Shown here in pieces: positions 8,229 to 26,469 of a stretch of 35,302 bases of DNA. How positions within the stretch are numbered: position 1 is the first letter of the stretch; each line of letters begins with the position of its first letter. Made by a program: the position numbers and the translations under genes. A model generated the notes under the pieces. The model had not been told where the DNA came from, did not search any database, and saw nothing but the letters and a program-made list of their open reading frames with translations. Origin of the DNA: an uncultured Candidatus Saccharibacteria bacterium (GTDB lineage: Bacteria > Patescibacteriota > Minisyncoccia > Phycocordibacterales > UBA918); NCBI GenBank assembly GCA_964402035.1, contig CAYOAM010000003.1, forward strand, positions 228,657 through 263,958, written 5' to 3'.

Positions 8229-8229
8229 T

Positions 8230-8712: not shown

Positions 8713-8977
8713 TGTCATTACAGAGATTAATCAGTCGTTCCCAACCCAAGATTTATTAGCTACAATACCAAAAATATCATGGCAGAAAATGGTGAATGCC
8801 ACCATTTTTCCGAGGACAGAACATTCCAGCGTTTCGAGAAAAAGGAGTATGAAAAATCAGAGAAGGATTTGTATATAAAGAAAAAGAAGTGTAGACAAAC
8901 TGCTCATGTAGGTTGGCGGTATGACAGGCCAAAAAAATGCGTGGCAGGCTTCTTTGCGTACCATTAAAATCTCTGGA

Positions 8978-9592: not shown

Positions 9593-9605
9593 AAACTAAG
9601 AAAAG

Positions 9606-10475
9606 TTATATGGCTGGGAGAGATTTTGCTTTACATAACATTATGCCATCTGTTGGTAAAGATACTTGCCCCAAGGGAGTCTCGGTGATAAGGCTTCGTG
9701 GGGGAATGTTGATTATAATCTTGTACTTATTATCTAACATCTCCACTAACTGTTCGTTCATCCACTCACGAGGTTTATCCGGTACCGAATGCACTCCAAT
9801 CATAAGGTAGTCGACACACCCATCCTCACGTATTGCAGATGAGTGGAGTATTGCGTCCCTCTCCGATCCTTGAATATCCATATGGATAAGATTGAGGTGC
9901 TTCACATTATACATTTTTAATACTGTATCGATGGTATAGGAAGGTACTTCTATGTTTCCTTTACTACTCACGCCGGCACCGTAGTAACTTGCCGGATCAA
10001 ATCTTGCGTCAAATTTGCAAACCCCATTTTCCCCTGTTATTGCCCCATGAAGCACGTGGCCGGCAATATTTTGCGATAAAAAATGATCCTTCGTCCATTT
10101 GTAGTGAGTCGGTTCTGCTTCAACTGCTAGACATAAATATCTTTGTGCTACTGTCGGTATTAACTTGTAATCTATCACACCAGCAAAAGACAGCGACCAG
10201 TCACCTCTCCCAGCACCAAGCTCCATAAAAGAAACATTCTCATCGGTGAATTCATGAATAACATTGAGAAAGAGTTGTATCTCGAACATTCCTTCTGTAA
10301 GAATGCCGGGGCCTGTTGGTGTTAGTACCCCAGGAATCTTTTTAATAGCAGAGCGGAATTGTTCAGAACGAGATTCTTTTTTCTGGTAATATCCATGCCA
10401 TCGTTTTTCCCAATACTGCCCATCGAGGGTTGAATCCGTCCTCGGTGACTTTATATCGAATAATCGTAAGTACAT
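9606..10475 (-). CDS. FkbM-family SAM methyltransferase
   Basis: FMELGAGRGDW, AVEAEP, VPSYTID, LIHMDIQGSE; start uncertain (10475 or 10499). Confidence 0.85.
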   Translation of the reverse strand: MYLRLFDIKSPRTDSTLDGQYWEKRWHGYYQKKESRSEQFRSAIKKIPGVLTPTGPGILTEGMFEIQLFLNVIHEFTDENVSFMELGAGRGDWSLSFAGVIDYKLIPTVAQRYLCLAVEAEPTHYKWTKDHFLSQNIAGHVLHGAITGENGVCKFDARFDPASYYGAGVSSKGNIEVPSYTIDTVLKMYNVKHLNLIHMDIQGSERDAILHSSAIREDGCVDYLMIGVHSVPDKPREWMNEQLVEMLDNKYKIIINIPPRSLITETPLGQVSLPTDGIMLCKAKSLPAI

Positions 10476-10661
10476 ATTAAGAATGTGTCTGTATTGCAAC
10501 TTTGGGTTTTTCTACTGCGAAGATCTACGAATCTTATCATAAGTCATATGCTCATTAAACCTTGCTCAAAATATAGGCTTTTCTTCCTAATGCAACAAGA
10601 TCAACACATGCATTTAAGCGTTCTGGGTGATTAATGATTCCCCATGCTATAGTATGGGCGT

Positions 10662-11378
10662 ATGATGGCCGAGAGTGCTCTAAAACTGGTTGGGGATGTT
10701 TTGCATGCCACGTATACTCCTAATCTGAGTATACTTTGTGATATTGATGAGCTAATTCTGCGGAATCGTGACATTTTCTTCCCCCGCAATGTGTATTCTG
10801 GAAATAAATCAGGTCCTACGTTCGCAGGAGAACAGCCGGTTCGCTATGAAGAAATGCCGTTTGCTGATTATGTATGGAAGATATCTGTAGATACTAGACA
10901 TGGGATGATTCTTGAGGAGTTGATTGTGAGGCTTTCCATCAAACATATATTAGAAATCGGGACAGGTTTCGGTGTTTCCACTTCATATCTGCTAAGTGGT
11001 TTACAGAGAAATTCAGAGAGACATACTCCTCATCTTGTTACCTTTGAATTGAGGAGTAAACTCTTCCAGTATATCTGGTTTCTATTGAAGAGATATCCAA
11101 AAGAATATTGGCAAGCAATACATTCTGACGCAGAGATTATTCTTCCCCTCATAAACATGGAATTCCAGATGGCTTTTATTGATGCTGGACACGAGTACGA
11201 TCAGTCAATTTCTTTATGGAATGCGCTAAAGTATAAAATAACTAGTGGGGGGTGTGTAGTATTCGACGACATTTATTGGTCTGAAGATATGAAGCGCGTG
11301 TGGCAGTATATTTCGCAAGACCCAATCATACATGGTACACATCAGACAAATAGGTTTGGTATTGGCATAATTCGATGA
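10662..11378 (+). CDS. class I SAM-dependent O-methyltransferase (Methyltransf_24-like)
   Basis: ILEIGTGFGVST, AFIDAGHEY, GGCVVFDDIYWS..M...W. Confidence 0.88.
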   Translation: MMAESALKLVGDVLHATYTPNLSILCDIDELILRNRDIFFPRNVYSGNKSGPTFAGEQPVRYEEMPFADYVWKISVDTRHGMILEELIVRLSIKHILEIGTGFGVSTSYLLSGLQRNSERHTPHLVTFELRSKLFQYIWFLLKRYPKEYWQAIHSDAEIILPLINMEFQMAFIDAGHEYDQSISLWNALKYKITSGGCVVFDDIYWSEDMKRVWQYISQDPIIHGTHQTNRFGIGIIR

Positions 11379-13366
11379 ATGTTTTTTCACCAAAATACAC
11401 GAAGTATTCGGTTGTATTACCGACTTACAATCGTACAATTGATTTAGAGCGAGCTCTTTTGGCGCTCGTGAGACAGACCATACCCCTCGATGAAGTTGAA
11501 GTTCTCGTAGTTGACGATGGGTCTTCAGGAAATGGTTTGGAGAATCAACAAATAATCAAAAAGATTCAAGAGTATAATAGAAAAATTGTAATCAAATATT
11601 TTTACAAAAAAAATGGTGGTAATGCCAGCGCACGAAATTTAGGGATTCGGAATGCAATTGGGGAAATAATATTTTCAACAGATGATGATGTTGAGGTTCC
11701 GCCATATTGGATGGAAAAAATACTTGAAGGGTTCAGACTTTTTCCAGCTGCTGTCGGTGTCGGAGGCGTGTATCATTATACTGCAGAAGATATACAAGCA
11801 AATATCTTTGCAAGGTTTTATGCAAATTTTGATAAGAAATATTTTCCACGTACTGATATTTCTGTAGTGTATTCCAATTATTCGGGTGGTTACAATCGAG
11901 CAGGAAATACTGCAAATATGGCTTATAAGAAAAGCGTATTTAAAAAAATTGGTTTATTTGATGAAAATATTTCATATACAGGTCAAACAGATTGGGAGTT
12001 TAGAACAAGATGTCTTGCTTATGGTTTTGGACTTGTAACGTTACCCCTAGATATCGTGCACCATAAAAAGTTCACTCTTAAGAAGTTTATTTTAAAATCA
12101 ATTGCACAAGGACGAGGTCAAAATTTTTGTGATACAAAATATCCTGACAGACCTGAATACAAGAAGACACAGACTATTTTAGGAATCTTCGAGTTGTATT
12201 CCGAATGGATACACGTCCCTCCCTATGCAGGTAGTTCCGGGATTTTTCTATTGTATCTCGTGTGTCGTTTAATCGGTAGGTACCTCAATATTTTTTTAAG
12301 ACATTATCCTAAAAGTGTCATATATCAACAAGCGTTTGACCGTAGGTTTATGTGCATGTATGACTCGTCGTTTCACCTCATAGAGGAAGTCTGGACATCT
12401 CCTCGCCCCAGCAAAGAGTACGCACCCCTATCTCGATCGAATAATCTTATTGTAACTGTAATTATACCTACATACAATCGAATTGGATCATTACTCGAAA
12501 CTCTCAGTGCGTGTGTTGCTCAGAGTATATCTAGAGAATCATATGAGATTATTGTTGTTGATGATGGATCAACGGATGGTACTTACGAAATAGTTTCTGA
12601 TTACTTTAAAAAAAAGAATTTTACCAATGCTTCTATAATAAAACTCGTAACTAATAGTGGTCCTTCGCATGCGAGGAATGTCGGTGTGGGTAATGCAAAA
12701 GGCAACATTATTGCTTTTACTGATGACGATTGTGTGCCTCCAAAAGACTGGATTTCGAAAATGATGTTAATTTTTTATGAACATCCTGAAACCTGTATCG
12801 TTGCTGGTTGGCATCACACTCCCAACCCATCGGACTTTAGTCGCATCTATAACGACAACTACTATGCAGTCTTTTTTCCACACGTAGCAAAACATCTACT
12901 TTTCACAAGAGGTTCATTTTCTCATAATGGTGTTAATACAGCCAATCTTGCGGTGAGAAAATACGCGTTTAATTCATTGGGTGGATTTAACGAATCGATG
13001 AAGCGATTTGAAGATACTGATTTTGGCACAAGGGCAATTCACAAAGGACTAGTGGTATGTTATTCGGGGATAATGGTGTTGCATCAAAAGAATCTGAATC
13101 TGGCTCAATTCTTAAGTCAAGGAGAAGAGAAGGCTGAAAGTATGATGCAGTGGCTGGGTCAGTGTGAGATGGTTCCCTTAAAAATCGTGAGAAATTACTT
13201 CAATCCCGGTCTAGCATGGATTCATTTTTTGAGGCTGTTTCCGTTTATATTTGCAAATCGAAAAAAGGAATGGGCGCGATTTCTGTATCGGGTAATTTTT
13301 TACAGGAAGTTCCTTGAGTATTTTCCTGATAAGAGAGCTTCCTTTATAAAAAGACTGCATTATTAA
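11375..13366 (+). CDS. tandem two-domain GT2 glycosyltransferase
   Basis: Two copies of the GT2 motif set: VLPTYNR/IIPTYNR, VVDDGS, ARNLG/ARNVG, TDDD, NTAN, GLFDE/GGFNE. Confidence 0.92.
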   Translation: MNVFSPKYTKYSVVLPTYNRTIDLERALLALVRQTIPLDEVEVLVVDDGSSGNGLENQQIIKKIQEYNRKIVIKYFYKKNGGNASARNLGIRNAIGEIIFSTDDDVEVPPYWMEKILEGFRLFPAAVGVGGVYHYTAEDIQANIFARFYANFDKKYFPRTDISVVYSNYSGGYNRAGNTANMAYKKSVFKKIGLFDENISYTGQTDWEFRTRCLAYGFGLVTLPLDIVHHKKFTLKKFILKSIAQGRGQNFCDTKYPDRPEYKKTQTILGIFELYSEWIHVPPYAGSSGIFLLYLVCRLIGRYLNIFLRHYPKSVIYQQAFDRRFMCMYDSSFHLIEEVWTSPRPSKEYAPLSRSNNLIVTVIIPTYNRIGSLLETLSACVAQSISRESYEIIVVDDGSTDGTYEIVSDYFKKKNFTNASIIKLVTNSGPSHARNVGVGNAKGNIIAFTDDDCVPPKDWISKMMLIFYEHPETCIVAGWHHTPNPSDFSRIYNDNYYAVFFPHVAKHLLFTRGSFSHNGVNTANLAVRKYAFNSLGGFNESMKRFEDTDFGTRAIHKGLVVCYSGIMVLHQKNLNLAQFLSQGEEKAESMMQWLGQCEMVPLKIVRNYFNPGLAWIHFLRLFPFIFANRKKEWARFLYRVIFYRKFLEYFPDKRASFIKRLHY

Positions 13367-14064
13367 TATACAATGCGGTGTTTATGATTCTCTTTGAATT
13401 GAGTAAATAAATTTCTATTGTACAGCTCTTCATTACTTACTTCTCCTTGGAGAGATCTCCAGTGCGAATGATGCTTGATTGTATAACATTGATCTAAACC
13501 TAAGTATGTCCAGGGTTCTAAGGTGCTATCACCACATAAATAAAACAGGACGTTGTCCCAGCGCGAGTGACCAGGAACAAATGCGGGGATATGGTCGCGA
13601 ATGTGGAACCACCATTTTTTTGAAAATATAAACATGTCAAAACCATAATCCCTAACAGGGTGAAGTGTTATTTCTTCTCTATTGAGAAAACTATCGGGTA
13701 TGTTGGGTATGATACGAGCTTTGCATGCATAGGCGTGCAAATGTTGATGCTGGTGGGTTTTAAAAATATGAAATATCGAAGCCGAAAAGTTGCTCGGAAT
13801 CACACATATATCGCTATTTGAAAAACAAAAGTAATCATAGTCATTGTTGTGTTCGATGCCAAAATCGATAATTGACTTTATGGTTGGTAACTTTCGATTT
13901 GAAAAATCAATCAAGGGCAGATTCTTATCGGAGATGGGAAATTTGCTGAAAAAACCACTTCTATACTGGTACTCCCAGGTTTGTTGCGCAAAAAGATTTC
14001 TCATGTTCTCTGCGCTTTCAGATTTGTACTCACTAAAGATATGTAAAATTCTGTTATTGTTCAT
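13363..14064 (-). CDS. hypothetical protein, possible GT-A fold
   Basis: 233-aa ORF with FSNSDI, GFDMFIF, G..RWDN and a late H-rich motif, resembling nucleotide-sugar transferase folds; weak call. Confidence 0.55.
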   Translation of the reverse strand: MNNNRILHIFSEYKSESAENMRNLFAQQTWEYQYRSGFFSKFPISDKNLPLIDFSNRKLPTIKSIIDFGIEHNNDYDYFCFSNSDICVIPSNFSASIFHIFKTHQHQHLHAYACKARIIPNIPDSFLNREEITLHPVRDYGFDMFIFSKKWWFHIRDHIPAFVPGHSRWDNVLFYLCGDSTLEPWTYLGLDQCYTIKHHSHWRSLQGEVSNEELYNRNLFTQFKENHKHRIVY

Positions 14065-14307: not shown

Positions 14308-15687
14308 ATGTACAAGAAGTTGTTCGCGGCCTTGGTCCTGATCATTATCTCCTTTGGGGCAAGTGCTCAGGCACCCAATTGCTACACGCCACTTTTTCAC
14401 AATACTCGTCTCGTCAATTCAGGTGATCTTGTGTCGCAAAAGATGCAGGTACTCTCTGGCTGGTGGAAAGGCATCTATCAGATAGGCAATACACCAGTGT
14501 GTATGGTGATAGTGGTGGAAGAGGTATTGCCGGGTGGTGCGTCTGCTCGTGTCGTATACAGTGGTCGGACCCCCAGTGGTGGAACCCGTCTATTACGGAC
14601 GACAGGTACTGTATCCTCCACTTCGCAGGATTCATTCGTTCTGCGGCATCGTCTTTTCGACCATACGGGTCGCGGTGACGCCACTATGACCTACTACGTC
14701 CATAGTGACGGCTCTGCCCAGGTAGAATTCTACGCCGGATCGGCTTCCGGGACTACTTACCCGAAAGCATCCCTTGCACGCATGGGAAGACAGCCTGTCG
14801 TTCAGCTTCCCGGACCGTTGGGTATTTCGAATCACCAGCTCGTGAAAACAGGACTGTTCGTTGGTGATTTTGAACAGCAAAGATCCTTTGCCGTCATCGT
14901 TGATTCGGTGGCAGAAGGAAAAGTGCGTGGTCGCTACCTCGAAGGGTCGTACTCTGGGGATGAAAGAACTCTCCTCCCCTTTGAGGCATTGGTAGATGCG
15001 GCTGGTACGTTTACTTTCGACAATAGCAACAATACACACGCCAATGTGCGTACAGTCTTCACTCTCTCAGCGCGTGCAGACATGTTCGATGCAGTGGCGC
15101 ATCCACAGTACAAGCGGCAGCAAGTAGCAGTACTCGAAAGAAGTATTTCTAGCGAGAGTCGGCCGCAGACCGGGGAGGCGCTTTTCTCGCAAGGGGAAGG
15201 CATACTTCGTGGCCAAGACGCCAAGAAAAGTACCTCGGAAACCGTACGAGGAATTGCCCTCATTCGGCAGTCTGCTGAAGCGGGGCACTCTTCTGCACAA
15301 GCGATGCTCGCAAGTGTATATCGGAACGGGCAGTTTGGCATTAGTGCTGACTACAAGGAGGCCTTACGTTGGGCAACTGCGGCGGTGAAAGGTGGCAATA
15401 TTGGTGCCCTCCTGGATCTTGCAGTTTTGTATCAAGACGGTCTCGGGATCGGTCATGATTTTGCTCAAGCGGGCCATCTTTTGGAACGTTGCGTGAATAT
15501 AGCTCCCGAAAATTCCTGGTGCCATCTCCGCCTTGGGAGATTGTACAAAGAAGGATTGGGAGTAGTACTAGATCTCGATCGAGCCAAGAAGCATTTCGAG
15601 ACCGCCTTAGCACAAGGAAACCCTTATGCCAAGGATGCATTACGCAAGCTGGGTGAACCTGTCCCGAAGGTGGCGCAGGGAGGATAG
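14308..15687 (+). CDS. secreted Sel1-like repeat protein
   Basis: Signal peptide ending ASA-Q; C-terminal repeats SAEAGHSSAQAMLASVY.NG, A..DLAVLYQDGLG, LGRLYKEGLGV..D...A..HF..A..QGN; GAAGGAG SD. Confidence 0.88.
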   Translation: MYKKLFAALVLIIISFGASAQAPNCYTPLFHNTRLVNSGDLVSQKMQVLSGWWKGIYQIGNTPVCMVIVVEEVLPGGASARVVYSGRTPSGGTRLLRTTGTVSSTSQDSFVLRHRLFDHTGRGDATMTYYVHSDGSAQVEFYAGSASGTTYPKASLARMGRQPVVQLPGPLGISNHQLVKTGLFVGDFEQQRSFAVIVDSVAEGKVRGRYLEGSYSGDERTLLPFEALVDAAGTFTFDNSNNTHANVRTVFTLSARADMFDAVAHPQYKRQQVAVLERSISSESRPQTGEALFSQGEGILRGQDAKKSTSETVRGIALIRQSAEAGHSSAQAMLASVYRNGQFGISADYKEALRWATAAVKGGNIGALLDLAVLYQDGLGIGHDFAQAGHLLERCVNIAPENSWCHLRLGRLYKEGLGVVLDLDRAKKHFETALAQGNPYAKDALRKLGEPVPKVAQGG

Positions 15688-15704
15688 TGGAGTCTACGTA
15701 GAAG

Positions 15705-15736
15705 GTGCGCGATTTACAGGAATCGCGCACTTTTTT
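15705..15736 (+). terminator. intrinsic terminator between convergent genes
   Basis: GTGCGCGATT-TACAGG-AATCGCGCAC followed by TTTTTT. Confidence 0.8.
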
Positions 15737-15740
15737 AATT

Positions 15741-16949
15741 TCACTTATCTAGCTTTTCAAGAAGGTTACGTGCCTGATGTGCATCACGTGGTGATATGTC
15801 GATTGCTTTTTGATAGCTCGTTATGGCGTCCTTACTGCGACCAAGTTTCTCGTATATTTTTCCAAGGATAATGTAGGGTTGATTGTATACACCGTGAAAT
15901 TCTGGCGCATTAAAATTGAACATAAAACCAGGGAAAGATCCTGAAGGTTTGTCGAGGTCTTTATTTAATGAGACGGCTTTTTCAGCATAAGTGAGTGCGT
16001 CTTGGTGCTTCCCTAGTTCATAGAGTGCTGTCGCGAGAAAGAAATATGTATTCACTTGCACAAAACGGGGGAAGTCGGGTGATGTAAATGTCGAATCCAC
16101 TGCAACTGTTTTGAGTGTCCCTAAGGCTTCTTCGTAGTGCCCTCTTAGTACCAAATCAACCCCTGTAAGATATTTTTCTATAAGCTTTTGTGACACCTCC
16201 ATTGAGGTGGTTCGAGGGGGGTACATTTTTTGAGACTTTTCACTAAAGAAAGATGGGGCGGGATTGCGTAATGGTTCCACGACAATGAATGGCAACGGCC
16301 TCCCTGCCTCAATACTGAAGGCAGCATAGATATCTTTAAAGGACATAGAAAAATTATTTCCATACCAGTAGTGATGCAAGATCACATTTTTATGTTCCGT
16401 ATCAATTCCTATAAACACAACCACCGTGTCGGATTGCTTTTCAGGGGATATCTGACTACTTGGCGGCATGAAAAGTAGTAAGGGGACGTTGCTTTTTGGA
16501 CTAAGGAAGCGTGCGGTTTCCTCAAGGGTCATGGGCATTACGTGGGCGCTCATTTTCCCAATCTGAGAAAAATAGTCAACGAGTGATTCGGACGTCGTGC
16601 GATTAGTTCGCGGGTTGGGGCGTACATGAAGTAGGCTGCTAGGGGTTATTGCTGTATTCTCCCAGTATTCTCCCAACATTAGGATTGCCGCAGCAATATC
16701 GCTAATAAATAAATCATCTGCAGTACTCTTCGTATAAAACCCCTTGTATGGGACACCGGGAATTATGTAATTCGTCTTTTTTTCTGCAGTGACAGTGTCC
16801 AATGTTTGTATTGGTTGGGTATCTTTCTTCAAAATGAAAAAAAAGATACCTGAAATACTTATAATAAAAAAAAGAATAAGGAGTAAAATTTTTTTCTGTA
16901 TAGTAAGCACGATATTAATTTTACGTGATAAAATATTACGTATTGCCAT
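15741..16949 (-). CDS. membrane-anchored C39-like (degenerate) peptidase domain plus TPR repeats
   Basis: N-terminal TM; IPGVPY, AAAILMLGEYW, VPLLL, VVVFIGID, ILHHYWYG..FSMSF match a C39_2-like scaffold; C-terminal TPRs (LATALYELGKHQDALTYAEKA; LGKIYEKLGRSKDAITSYQKAIDISP). Confidence 0.72.
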   Translation of the reverse strand: MAIRNILSRKINIVLTIQKKILLLILFFIISISGIFFFILKKDTQPIQTLDTVTAEKKTNYIIPGVPYKGFYTKSTADDLFISDIAAAILMLGEYWENTAITPSSLLHVRPNPRTNRTTSESLVDYFSQIGKMSAHVMPMTLEETARFLSPKSNVPLLLFMPPSSQISPEKQSDTVVVFIGIDTEHKNVILHHYWYGNNFSMSFKDIYAAFSIEAGRPLPFIVVEPLRNPAPSFFSEKSQKMYPPRTTSMEVSQKLIEKYLTGVDLVLRGHYEEALGTLKTVAVDSTFTSPDFPRFVQVNTYFFLATALYELGKHQDALTYAEKAVSLNKDLDKPSGSFPGFMFNFNAPEFHGVYNQPYIILGKIYEKLGRSKDAITSYQKAIDISPRDAHQARNLLEKLDK

Positions 16950-17235
16950 CAGAAAGTGAGCCGGAACTTGCAGCGCATTGTGCGGCGTCGCCTATACATC
17001 CTGTTCCGCAAGCTGTTGCAGGTGGTCCATCTCGATCGATACCTAGAATTACAGAATCGGGTGGTGTATCAGCGTGTGCGTTATAACCAAATAGTCCAAC
17101 GGCCGCGTCGCTTAAGCCATCCAGATTTTCATCATGCGACGTTCCCCAGAATCGAAATCCTGAAAGGAAAAATATGCTGACTAGAAAAAAACCACGGAGT
17201 AGTAAATTTCGAGCCTTCTTTTTTATGTAAACCAT
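16936..17235 (-). CDS. candidate RiPP precursor peptide with N-terminal signal/TM segment and Cys/Ser/Thr/Gly-rich C-terminus
   Basis: Basic N-terminus plus hydrophobic helix, AHA-D site, C-terminus PPATACGTGCIGDAAQCAASSGSLSDGNT; TGTATAAT upstream; divergent from ycaO; overlaps the next gene by 14 bp. Confidence 0.65.
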   Translation of the reverse strand: MVYIKKKARNLLLRGFFLVSIFFLSGFRFWGTSHDENLDGLSDAAVGLFGYNAHADTPPDSVILGIDRDGPPATACGTGCIGDAAQCAASSGSLSDGNT

Positions 17236-17288
17236 ATCGCATTTATTATACACCTTCTATTTTGCATAAGGTAGTGTATGATCTGCAC
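17236..17288. promoter_or_regulatory. back-to-back divergent promoters for the precursor and ycaO operons
   Basis: Minus-strand TATAAT at 17245-17250, 9 nt before the precursor ATG; plus-strand TATGAT at 17277-17282, 6 nt before the ycaO ATG; no SD. Confidence 0.55.
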
Positions 17289-18797
17289 ATGTATGCGGAT
17301 GAAGAATTAGATATTTTTAAAGACGTTTCCCTTCAGGAAGTCGTTTCAGCAAAGAAATTTAAATTCCTGGGTATTAAGGGATATATGGTTCGGATTGCTT
17401 TGTCTGTCCTGTACAAGTTCGTTGGAAAGAGCGTATTTTTTAAAGTACCAGAAAATCTTTCATGGATGGAACCCGAAGCTGTTACGTTCTTACCAATACT
17501 CGGTGTACTTAAAAAGCAAGGTTTCTTTAATAATGGTACACATATTATTACTAAACATGGCGGCTATGCTGATGAACCATACGCGCATGTCTATTTTGTG
17601 GGCGCTCACGGAGGAGGAGTTGATTTTTTTAGTCAAAAAAAATCGATCTGGAAAGCACTTGCTGAACATGTGGAGAGATATCTCTGGAAAGATACTGATC
17701 TTTCGCATCTTATTTCAGACAGTGTTTACGCATCGTATCAGGATCTTTGTCGGAGTCGGCAGGTGCTCAATATAGATCGATTGGCTGGTTTTTCTTCTGT
17801 GCAGCGAGAGAAGATTTCATCACTTCAGTATAGTCATATGTCAAAATTTCGGTGGGTGAGAGGATATGGAAACCACGGAGAGATATGGGTGCCCTTGCAG
17901 TTAGTGAGTGTTAAACATTTTGCACGATATGTACAAACACCACTGCAAGAAAAAAGTGTTCCTGATGCTGAGCCGCTTTTGCGGTCGGTGATTACAACAG
18001 GTCTCGCTACAGGACCGTCCCTTGAAGAAGCGGTTGTAAAAGGTGTGTTGGAGGTGATAGAACGTGATGCTTTTATGGTATCCTATCTCAATAGCATTAA
18101 CTGCCCAAGAGTTGATCTTCAAGATGCTCGTATTCGAGACAAGGATATCGAGGATGTTCTCCGTCCTTTTGATAGGTATAATCTAGAAGTGGTTGTGGTG
18201 AGATTAGTCACCGATTTCTCTTCCGTGTATGTATACGCTGCAATTATCATTGATCGCACAGGAAAAGGACCAGCGGTAACGGTTGGTGCAAAAGCCGATT
18301 TTTCTCCCAAAGCGGCCTTAATTGGGTCAATAAGTGAAAGTTTAGGTGTTCGTTATGCAGCTAAACAGACATTTCATAAAGTTCTTGATCCTGATGTGCG
18401 AAAAATGGATAGGGATGAGCGAGTAGTATATTGGGCCAGCTCAACCGAAATGATTGAAAAAATATCCTTTTTCTTTAAAGGAAAGCAAGAGCAAATAAAT
18501 TTTTTACCAGCCGAGGATGATCGTTTGGGTGATATTCAGTATTATAAAAAGAAAATGTCGCATCTTATGTGTGAGATTGAACGGAAGGGTTATGTTTGCG
18601 CGTATGTAGATTTAACACCAAATTGTATGCAATCATTGGGTTTGCATACAGCTTTTGTGATTATTCCTGAGCTACAACCACTTTATCTCAAAGAAGCCAT
18701 TCCATACTTGGGTGGCTCTCGTCTAAGGGAGGTGCCAATTCGGTGTGGGTATGAGTCAGCTTCAGTCTTAAATACAATTCCGCACCCATTCCCGTAG
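17289..18797 (+). CDS. ycaO: YcaO-family ATP-dependent cyclodehydratase
   Basis: KALAEHVERY, TTGLATGPSLEEAVVKGVLEVIERDAF, IIPELQPL and C-terminal PHPFP (PxPxP-type tail). Confidence 0.95.
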   Translation: MYADEELDIFKDVSLQEVVSAKKFKFLGIKGYMVRIALSVLYKFVGKSVFFKVPENLSWMEPEAVTFLPILGVLKKQGFFNNGTHIITKHGGYADEPYAHVYFVGAHGGGVDFFSQKKSIWKALAEHVERYLWKDTDLSHLISDSVYASYQDLCRSRQVLNIDRLAGFSSVQREKISSLQYSHMSKFRWVRGYGNHGEIWVPLQLVSVKHFARYVQTPLQEKSVPDAEPLLRSVITTGLATGPSLEEAVVKGVLEVIERDAFMVSYLNSINCPRVDLQDARIRDKDIEDVLRPFDRYNLEVVVVRLVTDFSSVYVYAAIIIDRTGKGPAVTVGAKADFSPKAALIGSISESLGVRYAAKQTFHKVLDPDVRKMDRDERVVYWASSTEMIEKISFFFKGKQEQINFLPAEDDRLGDIQYYKKKMSHLMCEIERKGYVCAYVDLTPNCMQSLGLHTAFVIIPELQPLYLKEAIPYLGGSRLREVPIRCGYESASVLNTIPHPFP

Positions 18798-18800
18798 CAT

Positions 18801-19574
18801 ATGATTTTTGGCCACTTAAGTAAATTATTTCATAAAAAAACCACTGGTCTTTTGGCGCCAGGAATTATTCCTGCTGACAGCAGATTGTGGCCAAAGGAGT
18901 GGGTTACTGTTGAGTACAAGACGTATCCGCGCATGGATCGTGTTGCTCTTTCTGCGCCAACCCCATTTTCAAATACGTATGAAAACATGTTGCGTACCCG
19001 TGCATCACTGCGTGATTTTGATCCTGCAAAAAGTCTCACACATAAAGAAGTCTCAACGTTGTTGTATTGGACAGTGGGTGAGGCGAACTTTTCAAACGCC
19101 CTAGATAATGATAGGAATCGTCGTTCTGCTCAAAAACGCTTTTATCCTTCGGGTGGGGGACGATATCCTGTCGAAACGTATATATCCATTCGGAATAGCA
19201 GAGAGATCGCATCGGGTGTGTACCACTACAACATTAAAGAGCATTCTTTAGAGCGGCTTTTAGGACCAGAAGGTGATCTCTTGGTCAAAAATGCTCTCAC
19301 CTATCCATGGTCAAAGGACGCACCATTTGTGCTCATGTTTACCGCAGTATGGAATCGTAATTTTATGAAGTATCGTGATTTTGGGTACAGAATTGTCCTT
19401 CTGGAAACAGGTCATGTTGCACAAAACGCAGTCATATCTGCCACAGGGCTGGGCCTTGGTTGTTGTACGCTTGCGGGCTTTAGAACTGAAGAAATGGCAA
19501 AAATACTTGATATAGATATGATGATTGAGGCGCCAACATACGTTATTGCCATGGGGCATCCAAAAATGGGGTAG
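18801..19574 (+). CDS. SagB/ThcOx-family FMN-dependent azoline dehydrogenase
   Basis: RASLRDF, RFYPSGGGRYPVETY, GVYHYN, MKYRDFGYR (Lys-Tyr motif), LETGHVAQN; 3 nt after the ycaO stop. Confidence 0.93.
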   Translation: MIFGHLSKLFHKKTTGLLAPGIIPADSRLWPKEWVTVEYKTYPRMDRVALSAPTPFSNTYENMLRTRASLRDFDPAKSLTHKEVSTLLYWTVGEANFSNALDNDRNRRSAQKRFYPSGGGRYPVETYISIRNSREIASGVYHYNIKEHSLERLLGPEGDLLVKNALTYPWSKDAPFVLMFTAVWNRNFMKYRDFGYRIVLLETGHVAQNAVISATGLGLGCCTLAGFRTEEMAKILDIDMMIEAPTYVIAMGHPKMG

Positions 19575-19606
19575 CCTCTCGCTTGGTGTTGTATGATGAA
19601 TGTATC

Positions 19607-20395
19607 ATGATGCAAAAACGCTGGTTGTATGGGGTGGCAACAATAGTTATCCTCGTGCTTGGTGTGTATATGGCAAGGGAAAATGTTTCACAATATCTTG
19701 TTGCGCACGCTTCCCCACGCACAGCATCGGTGATTGGTTTTGATAAACCGGCAGTATTTTTTTCCATAGGGAATTATTATTTTGGTGGTGGGATGTACGA
19801 TGTTGCGCGAGCTAAAGAAGCTTACAAAAAAGCGCTTGAACTTTCTGGCGATAGTCCGCAGAGCGATATCCACTATCAGCTTGCGCGAATCTACTTTATA
19901 GAAGGAGATTTTTATAATGCCCTCTACGAAATCGATAAGGAGATCGTACGATTCCCCGAGAATAAGCGTTCGTATTATGTGCGAGGTCTCATTTATGGTT
20001 TTATGAGACAGTATGAAAAAGCAGAAGATGATTTTCTTACTTTTATCGCGTGGAAAAAAAATGGTTGGGCTGCCTACAATGATCTTGCATGGATCTACTT
20101 TATGGAGGGTGAATTTGAGGGGGTTCGTGTAGCAGCCGAAGGAGGACTGAGATATCATCCAGACAATCCATGGCTTAATAACACGTTGGGGGTCGCGTTG
20201 CTCAATCTTGGTTTTAAAGAAGAGGCCCTGCGACGATTCCTTAATGCACAGGTATCTTTTGGTCATTTAACGAAAGAGGACTGGGGTAAGGCATATCCGG
20301 GAAATGATCCCCGTAGCTATGATCGAGGATTTGCATCAATGGGGGAACAAATTAAAAAAAATATTGCATTGACGGGTGATGCTCAGGTGGATTAA
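19607..20395 (+). CDS. membrane-anchored TPR protein
   Basis: N-terminal TM; repeats HYQLARIYFIEGDF..AL, YYVRGLIYGF..QYEKA, AYNDLAWIYF, NTLGVALLNLG..EEA. Confidence 0.88.
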   Translation: MMQKRWLYGVATIVILVLGVYMARENVSQYLVAHASPRTASVIGFDKPAVFFSIGNYYFGGGMYDVARAKEAYKKALELSGDSPQSDIHYQLARIYFIEGDFYNALYEIDKEIVRFPENKRSYYVRGLIYGFMRQYEKAEDDFLTFIAWKKNGWAAYNDLAWIYFMEGEFEGVRVAAEGGLRYHPDNPWLNNTLGVALLNLGFKEEALRRFLNAQVSFGHLTKEDWGKAYPGNDPRSYDRGFASMGEQIKKNIALTGDAQVD

Positions 20396-20435
20396 TGGGG
20401 TATTTTTTTTTGATCAGGTGATATTATGGATATAC

Positions 20436-22247
20436 ATGTTACAGATCCTCATGCGTTATGGTGCCAGGCCACTATTCATTGCGTCTGCCGGTGTACTGTT
20501 TTTTGTTGGATCTGTGGTATTTGTTGGTAGTGCGAATGTTGAGCATCTTGCCTCAGTTGAGGTCGGTTATGCGGCATTTTCCCCGAAAGGGGAAGTGGGC
20601 GGTAGTATTTTTCCTGCGTCGTGCGAATCTATTCCAGAATTTGAACATAATCTTGGGGAATGTGATGTGTCTACAACTCTAAGTTTTGAGGTGCAATTGG
20701 ACACCGCGCCAAATATTCTTTTTACGGGTGAGGTGGCGAATGTTCATTGGAAAGTCACCACTGGCGTTGGTTGGTTGCCACCAACAATAAATGATGAGAT
20801 TGCTCTTTTTAGGGTTGGTACAAGTGATGCGTCGCAATTAGATTATTTCAAAAATACTGTACCAGACACAGAAAGAACTGTGCCTGTAACAATAGTGCAA
20901 CCAGCCGGTAATTATGAGTTTCGTTATTTCTACAATGATGCAGGTGTACTGAAGCGTGTCGCAACGAGCAACCAGTTTACGGTGGGGAATTCTCGTATTG
21001 ATCTTGTATCGACCAATCTTGCCATGTCTGGTGGCGGTACCGTGATCACCATCGGTGCTCCCGCAGTCACCTTTACGGCAGATGTAAAAAACATCGGCAC
21101 CGCTGCAGCCACCACTTTCGACGACCAATTTTTATATGCGTATGTGACGGGGGGTGTAGTTGGTACTTTTTATCCCATCACTCCTGATATTTCTCATTTA
21201 AGTTTGGGGCCAAATGCTACTGAGGTTGATACATCCGGATCTTTTAGTCCATTAACTCCCGGGACGATAGTCGTGCGCCACTATGTGGATGCACATTCTG
21301 CCGTTGCCGAAGCAAACGAGGTGGACAATTTTTCAGAAAAGACCTTTACCGTGAGAGATACACTTGCGGTAACGTGTTCGGTAGCCGGATCACCAATCAT
21401 AAAGGGAGATTCTGCAGTTTGGACAGCAACACTTTCGGTTACGGGCGCTCCAAACTATACATACGAGTGGTCTGGTACGGATGGGTTTAGTGATACTAAT
21501 GTTGTGCCGGGAACTTCAAATACACAGTCGCACACGTACAATGTCCCTGGGACCAAGACTGCATCTGTGCGAGTCACTGATAGTGCAGGTGAAACCACTG
21601 GCTGGGTGGCATGCTCCAATAGTCTGACGGTCAATAATCCGCCGACTCCCGTTGCAAATATTGAAGCGAGAGTGACAGGTGGCCCATGGACTGGTGGAAC
21701 TCTCTATATTGTTGATGGGCAGGAAATTGAGTTACGCTGGAATTCGGTGAATGCTTCTGAATGCGCAGGTACAAACTTTTCAACAGGCGCAGCGCCAAAC
21801 GGTTTTGGTCAAACAGTGGGTGCGGGTGGTGTAGTTGAGCCCGGTCCAGGCTTGTCAACCCCTTATTCAGTAACGTGTCACAACGGTGCACCTCCTCCTC
21901 AGGATACGGATACTGTGACGGTAAATAAAGCACTAGTGGGAGTTGGTGGAGCAGCATCAATCAGAGCGATTCCAAGCCGCGTTCGTACTAATCAGTCTAC
22001 GGTCATAGATGGGACGGTCAATGCACATACTGGGTGTGTTATTACGGGACGCGCTATTGATCCAAGTAATCTTGATGGGGATGGAGATGCTGATACGCTT
22101 GATTTGACTACTTTGGGTATTGTTGCGGGGTATGGTCCGTATACAACAGGGCCAATAGTAGGCACCACTGCATATACACTTTCGTGCACATCCGGTGGTA
22201 CCGGTACAGCTATTGTTCGAGCACTCCCTACTTTTGAAGAGATTTAA
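20436..22247 (+). CDS. exported CARDB/PKD-like Ig-fold surface protein (paralog 1)
   Basis: N-terminal TM/signal; CARDB-type DL...VKNIG...VD....VAEANEVDN; PKD-like YTYEWSGTDG...YNVPGTKTASV; Thr/Gly/Val rich; ends VRALPTFEEI. Confidence 0.8.
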   Translation: MLQILMRYGARPLFIASAGVLFFVGSVVFVGSANVEHLASVEVGYAAFSPKGEVGGSIFPASCESIPEFEHNLGECDVSTTLSFEVQLDTAPNILFTGEVANVHWKVTTGVGWLPPTINDEIALFRVGTSDASQLDYFKNTVPDTERTVPVTIVQPAGNYEFRYFYNDAGVLKRVATSNQFTVGNSRIDLVSTNLAMSGGGTVITIGAPAVTFTADVKNIGTAAATTFDDQFLYAYVTGGVVGTFYPITPDISHLSLGPNATEVDTSGSFSPLTPGTIVVRHYVDAHSAVAEANEVDNFSEKTFTVRDTLAVTCSVAGSPIIKGDSAVWTATLSVTGAPNYTYEWSGTDGFSDTNVVPGTSNTQSHTYNVPGTKTASVRVTDSAGETTGWVACSNSLTVNNPPTPVANIEARVTGGPWTGGTLYIVDGQEIELRWNSVNASECAGTNFSTGAAPNGFGQTVGAGGVVEPGPGLSTPYSVTCHNGAPPPQDTDTVTVNKALVGVGGAASIRAIPSRVRTNQSTVIDGTVNAHTGCVITGRAIDPSNLDGDGDADTLDLTTLGIVAGYGPYTTGPIVGTTAYTLSCTSGGTGTAIVRALPTFEEI

Positions 22248-23191: not shown

Positions 23192-24289
23192 ATGGAAATG
23201 GATATTAATACTCCGCAGACTGATGAGGTGGTTCGTATTATGGATCAGCGGACGGTTGCGACGCGGAGGATCTATATATTTGTTGCGCTTCTAGTGCTCG
23301 CAATTTTTTCGGTGATGGGATACACATTGAAGCGTGATGGATTTATTGGTGCAGACCGTATGAAACCGGTACTGGATACGAACGTCGCAAGTCCCGAAGC
23401 GTCAGGAAACATTATCCTCACACTCGTACCCGATGATCGCAGCCATATGGGATTGTACTCATTTGATGTGAAGGCGGGCACATTGGCTCCGTATCTGTTG
23501 CCAAAAGGCAAGACCGCTATCGTGGGTGGGGGTGCTGCGGCAGATTCAAATATTCTGCCCCTTGCATCCAATATGGAGGCAGGCACGGGTGATGCAAAAA
23601 AACTACAGATCTTTCTCCACAATACGCAGAGTGGTATTGATACGAAGGTGACAACGAGTGATGTATCACAAAAAAGAAATCCAACAGTAGCTGCGAATGG
23701 CTCTATCGCTTTTAGCGGGAGTCCTGTAGTGAAAGAAGGAATTATTGATCCTGAAGATCTTGTTTTATATCTTATAGATCGGAGCTTTGCTGATAAGGCC
23801 AATAGTGTAGAAGTAAAGATAGGACGTGGTATGTTCCCACATTTTTCTCCCGATGGATCAAAGATCCTATATTTAGGTAATGCAGGTCTCTACCTCTACG
23901 ATAGTGCCAATAAAGCGACGTCACTTGTGTGGCAAGCAAAGGGAGGTGCTGCGCGTGCAAACATGCAGTTTTCTGTTTCTGATAAGGGGGATCGATTGGC
24001 GTGGACGAATCCAAACACGGGTATTGTTTCACTCTTTAGGATCAATGTATGGGACCCTTTCTCAATGGTGTTTGAAAAAGAAATACCGGTATATGCATTT
24101 TGGCCGGTGTTTTCTCCAGATGGAGCACATCTTGCACTTGAAGTTGTTGACGTGGCAGATGAGGGCAGAGCACCAAACAACCAGCGTCTTATGATCTATG
24201 ATCTAACAACACTTGAAGGAAAAGTCGTACAGGATCTTAAAGGCTTTGTGCAGTCGGCGATGTACATTAATGAATGGGTGAATAATTAA
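23192..24289 (+). CDS. membrane-anchored TolB-like/PD40 beta-propeller protein
   Basis: N-terminal TM; repeats NPTVAANGSIAF, FPHFSPDGSKILY, SVSDKGDRLAW, WPVFSPDGAHLA. Confidence 0.85.
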   Translation: MEMDINTPQTDEVVRIMDQRTVATRRIYIFVALLVLAIFSVMGYTLKRDGFIGADRMKPVLDTNVASPEASGNIILTLVPDDRSHMGLYSFDVKAGTLAPYLLPKGKTAIVGGGAAADSNILPLASNMEAGTGDAKKLQIFLHNTQSGIDTKVTTSDVSQKRNPTVAANGSIAFSGSPVVKEGIIDPEDLVLYLIDRSFADKANSVEVKIGRGMFPHFSPDGSKILYLGNAGLYLYDSANKATSLVWQAKGGAARANMQFSVSDKGDRLAWTNPNTGIVSLFRINVWDPFSMVFEKEIPVYAFWPVFSPDGAHLALEVVDVADEGRAPNNQRLMIYDLTTLEGKVVQDLKGFVQSAMYINEWVNN

Positions 24290-24294: not shown

Positions 24295-26469
24295 ATGCAC
24301 ACACTAAAAAATTATGTTGTCGTACTGATTGTTGGAGCACTCTTCATGTTTGTAGGAACCTTGGTGGTGAGTTTCGGTCAGGATCGGTTGGTCTTTGCCC
24401 AAGAGGCAGACGGGGGTGAGCCGGGTGGTATTGGTGGAGGTCCCACGGACGGCCCCACGGATGCTCCCGCGGATGGACCAACGGACGCGCCCTCAGATAA
24501 AGATGTGGATGTTTCTAGTTCATTTGGACTTGAACCCGGTTCCGTCACATGCGCCAACACCACCGACCTTGGTGCAGGAGGTCCTGCAGACAGTATCGAT
24601 CCCTCGACGGGGATACCAATCATCACTGGCTCAAGCTTTAGGGCTGTCTTGAGCGCCTCGTGTGATGGTTCGCCACATGCAAAGATTCGTGTTGATTATG
24701 TGGGTCTCTCGTGTAGTGACCAGGTTGATATCTACTATCAGACCACCAAGATAGATCGCAATGGATGTGCGACAAATAGTTTTTTTGAATTTCGCCATGA
24801 CGCGGTGTCACCAGTAGCGAGCGTGCCGGGTGTATATCCGGTACGTCTCAATGCTGTATCAGGCGGTCGCGTGACTGAAACCACCACGGGTAATGTTTCT
24901 GTACCCGACTGTAGCTCGGCTAAACCGGACGTTGTACCAGCAGCGCCAACCTACTCGACCATGACACAGCTCTTTGCAGGGTCAGTGACAAACAGTGCGT
25001 ACACAGCAGCAGGAAGTTTTCAAAACAAATTTGAAATTGATTATGGTCGCGATGGTACAGTGGATGTGACACTGAGTGGGGCAGGCACAGCAGTTGTTTC
25101 ACTTGCACCACGAGGTACCGCCTCGCTCGGAAGTGCTGTATGGACAGGGCCGGCGGGTAATCATCGTGTACGGGTTGTTGCTGATAGCGGGCGCACACTC
25201 GATGAGGAACGTGAGGACAATAATGTATCTGCGTGGACTGATTTTGTTATTCCAAAACCAGATCTCATCTCAGCAGGGCTTGGTATTGCAGGTGGGGCGA
25301 CATCGATTGTGGCGAATACACCAACAACACTCGTGGCACAGGTACAAAATACAGGGAGTGGTGTTGCGGGATACTTTGAAGATCGATTCTCATACAGTTA
25401 CGGTGGATTGGGCGGATTCTTTATACCTATTTCACCCGATGTTGCGCACGTATCTCTCGCACCTGGTGCGCCGGTGACTGATACTGCAGGAAGTTTTACT
25501 CCCACATCACCCGGAACTATTACGGTAAAGCACTGTGTCGATGAATTTTTTTCGGTTGCAGAATCAAATGAAGGGAATAACTGTTCGACACAAAGCTATA
25601 CGGTAACGAGCGATATTATGGTCGCGAGCTGCTCAGTTGATGACGGCGATGTCGAAGTGGGTGACCCTGTGGTGTGGTCTGCGACCGCAACCGGTGGATC
25701 AGGCTCGTATATATTTACTTGGATGAGTACCGATGGACCATCGGGTGACGGCAACACGAAAACGGTTGCGTATGGTACGACGGGTGCAAAGACCGCCTCG
25801 GTGATTGCGCGTGACGCACTCGATCTTACAAAGACGAGTGGAGCGGTTTCTTGTTCGACATTCGGCACATCGGTCACGGTTACTCCTTCGACCAATCCTA
25901 CGGCGGAACTCAAGGTGCGCATCGATAGTCCGGGATCTACATGGACATCAGGACCACTCAATATCACGGCTGCTGACCAGATTCAATTGAAGTGGGATTC
26001 CACAAACGCCGCACGGTGCGATGCACTTGCATACTTTGATACGGGACGAGCGGTACGTGGTGAGACATCGGGCGTTGGTGGGGTAGAAGAGCCTACCGCT
26101 GGGTCACGAACATATACCGTTGTCTGTGATGGTAAACGGGATGAGGTGACCGTAAACTTTGTCACTTCAGGTCCTGGGGGAAATCCTACTATTTCCGCAA
26201 ATCCTGGTCGCGTACGTGCAGGAAATACTAGTACCGTGGTGGGTACTCTCAATGGGCATACCGGATGTGTGATCACCGGAAGAGACATTGATCCATTTAA
26301 TAGCGATGGAGATGGCAATCCAAGCACGCGTTTGGTAGGAGGGTCAGGTGCTTTTGGTCCGTATGTTACCGGTCCTATTGTGGGCACGACACCGTTCCGT
26401 CTATCCTGTGCGTCGGGTGGTAGTGCTGTAGCTACTGTGCGAGTGATCTCAAGTGAGATAGAAATTTGA
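24295..26469 (+). CDS. exported CARDB/PKD-like Ig-fold surface protein (paralog 2)
   Basis: Signal ending VFA-Q, G/P/T/D linker, two CARDB-like domains (KPDV...DEEREDNN; KPDL...VAESNEGNN), PKD-like domain; C-terminal half collinear with paralog 1. Confidence 0.82.
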   Translation: MHTLKNYVVVLIVGALFMFVGTLVVSFGQDRLVFAQEADGGEPGGIGGGPTDGPTDAPADGPTDAPSDKDVDVSSSFGLEPGSVTCANTTDLGAGGPADSIDPSTGIPIITGSSFRAVLSASCDGSPHAKIRVDYVGLSCSDQVDIYYQTTKIDRNGCATNSFFEFRHDAVSPVASVPGVYPVRLNAVSGGRVTETTTGNVSVPDCSSAKPDVVPAAPTYSTMTQLFAGSVTNSAYTAAGSFQNKFEIDYGRDGTVDVTLSGAGTAVVSLAPRGTASLGSAVWTGPAGNHRVRVVADSGRTLDEEREDNNVSAWTDFVIPKPDLISAGLGIAGGATSIVANTPTTLVAQVQNTGSGVAGYFEDRFSYSYGGLGGFFIPISPDVAHVSLAPGAPVTDTAGSFTPTSPGTITVKHCVDEFFSVAESNEGNNCSTQSYTVTSDIMVASCSVDDGDVEVGDPVVWSATATGGSGSYIFTWMSTDGPSGDGNTKTVAYGTTGAKTASVIARDALDLTKTSGAVSCSTFGTSVTVTPSTNPTAELKVRIDSPGSTWTSGPLNITAADQIQLKWDSTNAARCDALAYFDTGRAVRGETSGVGGVEEPTAGSRTYTVVCDGKRDEVTVNFVTSGPGGNPTISANPGRVRAGNTSTVVGTLNGHTGCVITGRDIDPFNSDGDGNPSTRLVGGSGAFGPYVTGPIVGTTPFRLSCASGGSAVATVRVISSEIEI

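Follow-up and report, generated by a model that had tools for sequence, protein, structure and literature searches.

The 35,302-nt window analyzed here (the whole stretch of Patescibacteria DNA taken from contig CAYOAM010000003.1) raises the question of whether a YcaO cyclodehydratase and a SagB-type dehydrogenase, encoded back to back with a 99-amino-acid (aa) peptide and its membrane-anchored companion, can constitute an azole-forming pathway for a peptide that is made by ribosomes and modified after translation (RiPP) without the partner protein and the exporter found in canonical clusters. The genes concerned occupy positions 15741-22247 of the window, to which all positions refer. We consider it rather likely that they encode a partner-less linear azole-peptide (LAP) pathway of the thiazole/oxazole-modified microcin (TOMM) type, grafted onto a conserved exported-peptide module of the Patescibacteria.

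In the proposed pathway, the 99-aa product would be made with a Sec-type signal anchor, consisting of a positive N-terminus, a hydrophobic helix, and a spacer. Before export, the cytoplasmic, ATP-dependent YcaO would cyclodehydrate Cys, perhaps also Ser/Thr, of the core to azolines, which the SagB-type enzyme, dependent on flavin mononucleotide (FMN), would then oxidize to azoles. The modified peptide would exit via the general Sec pathway rather than an ABC exporter, and signal peptidase I would cut after the A-x-A motif to release a peptide of ~44 residues with an N-terminal Asp. Outside, a companion protein with a pseudo-C39 domain and TPR repeats, a 270-aa TPR protein (TPR270), and a CARDB/PKD protein would bind, hold, or present the peptide.

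The enzymes carry the chemical part of this proposal. The YcaO protein, whose family assignment had been proposed in a preliminary description of the sequence, matches PF02624 at 138.4 bits against a cut-off of 25.7, and its best-scoring NCBIfam model is TIGR03604 (TOMM cyclodehydratase, SagD family), of which profile positions 5-377 of 377 are covered. Across 41 aligned YcaOs, neither of the ATP/Mg motifs, ExxER and ExxERD, shows any variation. The protein terminates in PHPFP, and PHPF followed by one residue (P, L, or I) ends most of the 45 relatives listed; a C-terminal PxP motif is recorded for azoline-forming YcaOs in the available text of a review (PMC7136475), which backs the azoline-type meaning initially given to this terminus. 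The AlphaFold2 (AF2) model has a predicted local distance difference test score (pLDDT) of 86.5, and its best Foldseek matches are LynD, MusD, and TruD (E 4e-21 and a query TM-score, TMq, of 0.63 against the best cyanobactin heterocyclases), with archaeal YcaOs and McbD also among the matches. The profile search of the PDB returned an E-value of about 1e-58 and aligns only with residues ~350-780 of TruD/LynD. These cyanobactin enzymes are thus the best solved matches by both profile and fold; they carry an N-terminal E1-like/RiPP recognition element (RRE) part of ~350 residues, whereas the window enzyme has ~90 poorly modelled residues there (pLDDT 33-75), in the order strand-helix-helix-strand-helix-strand. 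Counted from the start codons of the longest open reading frames (ORFs), the stretch before the first ExxER has a median of 142.5 residues in YcaOs linked to TPR270 (n=10) vs 87 in the others (n=31), and by this comparison the window YcaO bears a predicted subfamily-specific N-terminal extension of ~55 aa.

The SagB-type protein matches TIGR03605 at 128.8 bits against a cut-off of 78.4, and the Pfam Nitroreductase family at 85.8 bits. Its Lys-Tyr pair, present as MKY, is retained in homologs that neighbour a YcaO (K190 in 64 of 66, Y191 in all 66), so the SagB-type call and the motif reported for it are borne out. Its role is probably the oxidation of azolines to azoles, as judged from family membership and the retained pair.

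For azoline-forming YcaOs, an E1-like (C) or ThiF-like (F) partner, or a fused RRE, recognizes the leader in most cases. Family-profile searches found no match to TIGR03603, TIGR03882, PqqD, or TfuA in the whole genome, ThiF is represented only by a sub-threshold fragment of 26.8 bits ~129 kb from the cluster, and no ABC_tran domain lies within the window. The lack of an E1-like/RRE partner, of TfuA, and of an ABC exporter, as initially noted, therefore holds genome-wide for the first four families and within the window for the exporter. An enzyme that makes a thioamide or an amidine instead of an azoline would suit a genome in which an E1-like partner was not found, and the bottromycin stand-alone YcaOs make an amidine as well as a thiazoline (available text of PMC7136475). 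Such a product is nevertheless very improbable here, since TfuA was not found in the genome either, SagB with an intact Lys-Tyr pair stands in the same operon at 11 of the 12 loci that combine YcaO with the small ORF, the closest solved relatives are azoline-forming heterocyclases, and the PHPFP terminus is present. The bottromycin enzymes, likened here by description, share with the azole pathway proposed for the window the partner-free action (available text of PMC7136475) and differ in cluster context, which is without this SagB-type partner logic.

The putative substrate is the product of the 99-aa ORF. The window small ORF has no Pfam or NCBIfam match, and its homologs are titled "hypothetical protein" in public records; the comparisons that follow mark it as a real, conserved gene. 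The single YcaO used as a query found no related loci, whereas the scan based on an alignment did, and the small-ORF family now comprises 17 loci, 12 of which bear YcaO. At these 12 (window, L009, L011 from a same-genus genome, L012 from genome G022, L021, L027, L028, L137, L145, L146, L154, and L156), a small ORF of the same build lies 6-1345 nt from YcaO in varied gene orders, and at 11 loci precursor, YcaO, and SagB are all three present. The recurrence of an ORF with a transmembrane (TM) helix, A-x-A-D, and a Cys/Ser/Gly-rich tail beside YcaO, proposed beforehand as a check on the system, was thereby found.

The family build consists of a positive N-terminus, a hydrophobic helix, a spacer, a near-invariant A-x-A-D, and an acidic Gly/Ser/Cys tail. 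In the window peptide, the helix spans residues ~11-29, and a spacer of ~26 aa ends in A-H-A, followed by D and a 44-aa acidic tail with 3 Cys, 5 Ser, 4 Thr, and 7 Gly. Among 15 aligned members, the A-x-A-D motif hardly varies in its A and D: Ala occupies position -1 in 14 members, while position -3 holds Ala in 12 and Val in 2. A net N-terminal charge of +2 to +6 and a hydrophobic 19-residue stretch (Kyte-Doolittle 1.5-2.7; 1.74 in the window peptide) are common to all 15, and their cores hold 0-5 Lys+Arg vs 2-17 Asp+Glu. Four members share a core start CG(T/S/P)G(C/V), which reads CGTGC in the window and L012, CGSGC in L021, and CGPGV in L009. The genome encodes a single signal peptidase I (135 bits), the enzyme that would process the A-x-A-D site.

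The features are collected in the table below. All four initially predicted ORFs were recovered at the positions given for them, and the reported 53 bp between the divergent starts are exact from ATG to ATG; if the longest ORFs are taken, with the 99-aa ORF beginning at GTG 17253 (105 aa) and YcaO at TTG 17262 (511 aa), the gap is 8 bp. The end of the 99-aa ORF overlaps the start of the companion gene by 14 nt. On the plus strand, YcaO and SagB are 3 nt apart, SagB and TPR270 8 nt, and TPR270 and the CARDB/PKD gene overlap by 20 nt; because of this spacing, the four look like one operon. The four-gene extent first assigned to the system was consequently too small, as its end at 19574 cuts the operon, whose plus-strand genes run to 22247. 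A scan for consensus sigma-70 sites found none in the 53-bp divergent region and 4 in 15500-20600, vs 11.8 expected.

Features of the azole-peptide locus and its downstream genes (window positions)
Feature	Position	Strand	Basis
402-aa membrane-anchored companion (pseudo-C39 + TPR)	15741-16949	(-)	ORF + Pfam TPR
99-aa putative precursor	16936-17235	(-)	ORF from ATG; no family match
Divergent intergenic region, 53 bp	17236-17288		Between ATG starts of the 99-aa ORF and YcaO
YcaO cyclodehydratase, 502 aa from ATG, stand-alone type	17289-18797	(+)	PF02624
SagB-type FMN dehydrogenase, minimal 257-aa form	18801-19574	(+)	TIGR03605
TPR270, membrane-anchored 270-aa TPR protein	19583-20395	(+)	Pfam TPR
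623-aa surface protein: TM helix, P-A-S-C motif region, CARDB + PKD	20376-22247	(+)	Pfam CARDB, 30.4 bits
PD40 beta-propeller protein	23192-24289	(+)	Pfam PD40
Second CARDB paralog	24295-26469	(+)	Pfam CARDB, 65.9 bits

The four gene families of the divergent cluster recur in a genome of the same family (L009) in another order and orientation, and in further relatives, so that the arrangement is more than chance. In L009, SagB shares a strand with a 93-aa ORF, the companion is encoded on the opposite one, and YcaO runs convergently to the companion. The source genome measures 1,028,292 bp in 6 contigs, is 99.26% complete, and has a single YcaO gene; its size and near-completeness, together with relatives that are Patescibacteria metagenome-assembled genomes, uphold its initial designation as a genome of the Candidate Phyla Radiation (CPR) type. 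The window stretch is present in four DNA sequencing runs, all from one freshwater study and three of them possibly its source, with no RNA run among those listed.

Besides a hydrophobic helix at its N-terminus, the 402-aa companion contains TPR repeats (Pfam TPR_2, 53 bits), and its AF2 model has a pLDDT of 72. Its family counts 20 members of 366-448 aa. The profile of the N-domain aligns with P0021, a true Peptidase_C39_2 protein (PF13529, 72 bits), with a hhalign probability of 97.1% (E 7e-11), and the L009 ortholog passes PF13529 at 26.6 bits against a cut-off of 24, while the C39 region of the window companion alone has no Pfam match. The Foldseek search of the companion model returned TPR proteins only, which says nothing on the N-domain, and the profile search of the N-domain against the PDB gave chance-level matches (best E 0.14). 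The Gln/Cys/His of P0021 align with Phe/Asp/Thr in the window companion, with framework motifs retained, and no Cys is invariant across the 20 members; the near-invariant His192 aligns with the His that precedes Asp in the V-H-D-P motif of P0021, a position that we take to be non-catalytic from the C39 pattern. An active C39 leader peptidase was rejected on account of the lost catalytic positions. Of the "C39-like/TPR" label originally attached to this protein, the TPR repeats and the C39 homology stand, and a protease function does not; the companion is unlikely to be a leader protease, and the loss of Gln/Cys/His suggests a pseudo-peptidase that binds rather than cuts. Since its single N-terminal helix is preceded by five positive residues, the C39-like and TPR parts probably face outward.

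Non-catalytic C39-like domains are known, for example in haemolysin-type ABC transporters, where their presumed role is peptide binding. They resemble the window domain in keeping the fold and losing the catalytic residues, and they differ in being part of a transporter, whereas the window domain belongs to a single-pass membrane protein with TPR repeats that is predicted to face outward. A second companion family, termed "LGW" (A8; 335-432 aa, with a TM helix at the N-terminus and, close to the C-terminus, an invariant G-W), takes the place of the pseudo-C39/TPR protein beside the small ORF at L021:3263-4438, L156:5558-6697, L137:12437-13531, L157:6917-8020, and others. It has no Pfam family and no solved relative, and kinship with the C39/TPR companions was rejected at a hhalign probability of 5%. 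A third kind is found at L011:10834-11952 (genome G001, same genus), where a 372-aa membrane protein with weak (alpha/alpha)6-barrel matches (GH88, E 0.0015; GH127, E 0.005) lies beside the precursor.

TPR270 is the most conserved neighbour of this YcaO subfamily and adjoins YcaO in 10 loci of the first set. Among 61 relatives, it matched strongly in 10 genomes, comprising all 5 with a convincing YcaO and 5 without YcaO; YcaO itself matched in 6, one of them weakly. In an evenly drawn sample of 401 genomes of the class, TPR270 occurs in 25, YcaO in 23, and both in 14, i.e., TPR270 accompanies 14 of the 23 YcaO genomes vs 11 of the 378 YcaO-less ones. Of 17 genomes whose YcaO is short (open frame of 440-540 aa), 14 have TPR270, whereas all 6 genomes whose YcaO is long and fused (647-787 aa) lack it. 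Conversely, 12 of the 24 TPR270 loci outside that of the window have a YcaO no more than 9 kb away. On a YcaO tree of 52 rows, the TPR270-linked enzymes group with 2 changes, a value as low in 0 of 500 shuffles, and the nearest enzyme to that of the window is L156 at 45% identity. Duplicate loci, rows shorter than 380 aa or with masked residues, and first-set rows with E >1e-17 were dropped from this tree; the last filter took out the TPR270-linked L059, L064, and L073.

When all proteins of at least 150 aa within 9 kb of the 17 small ORFs were clustered, TPR270 was found at 15 loci, YcaO at 12, SagB at 11, the "LGW" companion at 7, a family of 533-857-aa proteins (one with a Pfam PQQ_2 beta-propeller) at 6, and the pseudo-C39/TPR companion at 5, counts that are biased by the use of YcaO or TPR270 as bait and by the kinship of the genomes and that tell to this extent against the proposed linkage. 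Split by bait, TPR270 is present at 6 of the 8 YcaO-baited loci, and YcaO at 4 of the 9 TPR270-baited ones. The 533-592-aa members of the fifth family (L009:4191-5933, L106:3142-4920, L110:11780-13381, L140:7444-9111, and L156:1591-3216) show, by eye, a phosphoribosyltransferase-like N-terminus and a PQQ-type beta-propeller, and occur near the module with and without YcaO.

Genomes that lack YcaO bear on which part of the system is primary. No YcaO was found in G006, G008, G117, G249, and G289, whose completeness is 91-100%, and four of these (G008, G117, G249, and G289) contain the small-ORF family. Because the small ORF and the TPR and CARDB neighbours occur without YcaO, the YcaO/SagB pair would be an optional add-on to a pre-existing exported-peptide module, and not the core of the system that the preliminary description saw in it. 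Its minimal thiazole/oxazole pathway is retained insofar as a YcaO/SagB pair without E1, RRE, TfuA, or ABC protein is concerned, and is revised in that the system is wider than four genes and YcaO is optional.

In two of the YcaO-less genomes, another enzyme stands in this place. At L157 (G249), a 7-Cys member is divergent from a gene for an enzyme of the MbnB/TglH/ChrH type (multinuclear non-heme iron-dependent oxidase, MNIO; PF05114, 248.5 bits; region 5168-6877); a 190-aa ORF without a Pfam match overlaps the end of this gene, and a radical-SAM (rSAM)-SPASM gene lies close by, upstream. No other PF05114 match exceeds the cut-off in the 401 class genomes, and the L157 system looks like a bufferin-style one in a CPR genome. 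At L140 (G289), a 4-Cys member follows an 857-aa radical-SAM/beta-propeller protein by 90 nt. The notion that Cys-rich tails occur only where YcaO is present was rejected because L157 and L140 have Cys-rich members in YcaO-less genomes. The MbnB-type adjacency is hard to explain unless the small-ORF family is a substrate for Cys-modifying enzymes, and suggests as much, although a single instance proves little.

The same sporadic pattern could be read differently, namely that the small ORF encodes an unmodified, signal-anchored acidic peptide, at the surface or secreted, belonging to an envelope module with a housekeeping role, and that YcaO/SagB form a horizontally inserted island whose substrate is unlinked or lost or whose enzymes are inactive. 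The module without YcaO in 11 of the 25 TPR270 genomes, the YcaO matches in just 6 of the 61 relatives (one weak), and the G+C content of 0.41-0.44 at 16-21 kb between flanks of 0.48-0.50 speak for such an island. We nevertheless regard it as decidedly unlikely, since YcaO/SagB insert at the module repeatedly and in differing orders, including ones in which SagB and the companion flank the small ORF (L009) or YcaO precedes it by 29-56 nt (L146, L021), the only MbnB-type enzyme of the 401 genomes also adjoins the small-ORF family, and the catalytic motifs of both enzymes are intact.

The proteins encoded downstream of TPR270 offer another candidate substrate. CARDB/PKD homologs come after TPR270 in loci with and without YcaO, and the second CARDB paralog matches the 623-aa protein at E 3e-81; the PD40 protein and this paralog are possibly part of the same surface module. 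Large surface proteins follow TPR270 regardless of YcaO (window 20376-22247 and 24295-26469, L105, L106, L107, and L110), some of them matching CARDB, and share a G-G-x-x-x-P-A-S-C-(E/P/D)-S segment ~30 residues past the TM helix. The YcaO and SagB enzymes might accordingly act on a larger envelope protein of the module, i.e., the CARDB/PKD protein with its P-A-S-C motif or, elsewhere, membrane proteins of 280-540 aa that are Cys/Gly-rich past the TM helix, with the small ORF a mere neighbour. This is an improbable reading, though it has concrete points in its favour: L010, L030, and L064 show no small ORF of this type; 517-539-aa TM proteins with a Cys/Gly-rich N-terminal stretch follow YcaO/SagB, SagB where found, at L010:7203-8822, L030:5843-7429, and L064:7203-8756; TM proteins of 301 aa (L059:7416-8321) and 282 aa (L073:3771-4619) adjoin YcaO, the latter carrying A-H-A-D and then a Hint domain (PT-HINT, 37.8 bits); and CARDB-like P-A-S-C proteins come after TPR270 in most loci. 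Against it, YcaO-less genomes contain the P-A-S-C proteins to the same extent and with no less conservation, no large Cys-rich protein lies beside YcaO in the window, and the large TM proteins share the logic of the small ORF (a Cys/Gly-rich stretch past a TM helix), which gives them the look of fused forms of the substrate rather than of competitors to it.

Several observations attach to these loci. The 517-539-aa proteins of L010, L030, and L064 are possible protein-sized azole substrates, and the Hint-bearing protein of L073 suggests a self-cleaving version. The YcaOs of L073 and L059 end in PHM.. rather than PHPF., with a weak SagB match. In L010 and L030, two ORFs upstream of YcaO appear by eye to be ATP-grasp-like and a methyltransferase, and in L010, L030, and L064 a 356-370-aa protein lies between YcaO/SagB and TPR270.

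Returning to the small ORF as the substrate of a partner-less azole pathway, a number of findings weigh against this proposal. The YcaO scores 187.7 bits with TIGR03604, under the cut-off of 219.25. An RRE or E1-like element in its N-terminus is unsupported, as the strand-strand-strand-helix-helix-helix order is absent in the AF2 model and both Foldseek and the PDB profile search align the YcaO domain only. A signal-anchored substrate of a cytoplasmic enzyme requires a mechanism that delays export. The hydrophobic helix is called from Kyte-Doolittle windows only, and A-x-A-D lies 17-34 residues past it (some spacers being mis-assigned), a longer stretch than is usual for signal peptidase I. 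The window core holds just 3 Cys. Tails with 0-1 Cys occur in L106, L144, and also L028, which stands beside a YcaO, and the small ORFs of G008 and G117 have 0 and 1 Cys, respectively; since the family exists in YcaO-less genomes and some tails are this poor in Cys, the small peptide has a function independent of azoles.

The comparison with known systems places the locus among LAP clusters. The minimal LAP set comprises a precursor (A), a YcaO (D), and a dehydrogenase (B), according to the available text of the review (PMC7136475), and the window has this gene set, with the 99-aa ORF as predicted A. In the available text of Sharrar et al. 2020 (PMC7298704), a Microgenomates LAP cluster consists of a YcaO, a nitroreductase, a peptidase, and an 84-aa precursor, and 110 further LAP clusters are reported in 93 CPR genomes. 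The window thus shares with LAP/TOMM systems, such as microcin B17 and these CPR clusters (as described in that text), the precursor, YcaO, and SagB and a Gly/Ser/Cys-rich core, and with the latter also the occurrence in CPR genomes. It differs in that an E1-like or ThiF-like partner and an ABC exporter are lacking, and in a precursor with a hydrophobic, putative signal anchor and A-x-A-D in place of a soluble leader. The Microgenomates- and DPANN-type loci that we examined have soluble precursors of 62-111 aa, YcaOs of 436-454 aa, and no TPR270, by which the window appears to be a different LAP sub-type; L019 and L014 encode a 421-435-aa protein with an HxxEH motif, M16-type by eye.

Analogous to the proposed peptide, bufferins, themselves RiPPs, carry Sec signal peptides, receive their modifications ahead of export, undergo cleavage at the signal-peptidase site, and bind copper in the periplasm (available text of PMC11626156), and a Sec signal on a RiPP is called highly unusual among bacterial RiPPs (available text of PMC12452194). 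Bufferin systems (MNIO/DUF692 + DUF2063) and the window family have in common a small Cys-containing precursor in which a Sec-type signal, putative in the window family, replaces the classical leader. The conversion of Cys to a five-membered heterocycle in the cytoplasm, followed by Sec export and cleavage by signal peptidase, is as those papers portray it and is proposed alike for the window; L157 moreover pairs its peptide family with an MbnB-type enzyme. The enzymes differ, with YcaO and an FMN dehydrogenase predicted to yield thiazole/oxazole in the window and 5-thiooxazole formed in bufferins. Furthermore, the window precursor lacks DUF2282, has a long spacer after the helix, and is accompanied by pseudo-C39/TPR, TPR270, and CARDB proteins, and PF05114 is absent from the genome of the window.

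The novelty implied by the preliminary description is therefore lower than it seemed, as CPR LAP clusters are in print (PMC7298704) and precursors with Sec signals are known for bufferins (PMC11626156), going by the available text of both. A literature search, in which most subscription journals were outside coverage, did not find YcaO clusters with signal-bearing precursors or with this surface module described, and the cluster list of PMC7298704 may include the type of the window. The locus is reasonably likely to be a LAP-cluster variant that is partner-less and Sec-routed, and the pairing of the small ORF with varied Cys-modifying enzymes speaks for a family of modified, exported peptides that has not been described before.

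Beyond the cluster, the window has features of its own. The low-G+C stretch 8001-14000 (0.36-0.41), possibly an acquired glycan-modification island, encodes a double GT2 glycosyltransferase at 11375-13366 together with two methyltransferases, at 9606-10499 and 10662-11378, and ORFs that match no family. A 978-aa protein at 5292-8228 has an LCAT-like alpha/beta-hydrolase (lipase/acyltransferase) domain (PF02450, 36 bits). At 29228-31798, a PilM gene (PF11104, 98.6 bits) and the three short, codirectional ORFs behind it make up an operon for type IV pilus assembly, ~7 kb away from the cluster, and N-termini similar by eye are found near TPR270 in L108, L109, and L110.

As to function, host attachment, metal binding, and antagonism were the roles initially suggested. 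An extracytoplasmic metal-binding peptide is our leading guess, by analogy with bufferins, and the MbnB-type enzyme that adjoins a member of this peptide family in a single relative lends it some weight; alternatively, the peptide would act on a host or a competitor. A broader view, which we hold only tentatively, is that Patescibacteria possess a family of scaffolds, both peptides and proteins, that are signal-anchored and exported by Sec and whose acidic, Cys/Ser-rich tails mature through interchangeable cytoplasmic enzymes, with the window as the azole counterpart of bufferins. In most lineages the maturases would be the YcaO/SagB pair without a partner, in others an MbnB-type oxidase or radical-SAM enzymes, and the products would be handled by a conserved surface apparatus of the pseudo-C39/TPR or "LGW" receptor, TPR270, and the CARDB proteins. 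On this tentative view, the pathway would be the first azole RiPP route to use general secretion and a hydrophobic leader, possibly read at the membrane by the N-terminal helix specific to the YcaO subfamily, and its purpose in ultra-small episymbionts would be to capture metals or to make contact with the host.

If the azole pathway operates as proposed, an azoline-forming YcaO would recognize its substrate without an E1-like, ThiF-like, or RRE element, and its "leader" would be a secretion signal, a logic demonstrated so far only for MNIO-modified bufferins. A partner-less enzyme, a hydrophobic leader, and interchangeable maturases around one exported scaffold would be its distinguishing features, and the pseudo-C39/TPR protein would exemplify a protease fold re-used as an extracellular peptide receptor. 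The resulting signature for genome mining, namely a hydrophobic helix, A-x-A-D, and an acidic Cys/Gly tail beside TPR270, would find substrates missed by standard precursor finders, which expect soluble leaders. CPR genomes of ~1 Mb would then keep RiPP chemistry for use in the envelope or outside the cell, which would open a way to study their dealings with metals or hosts.

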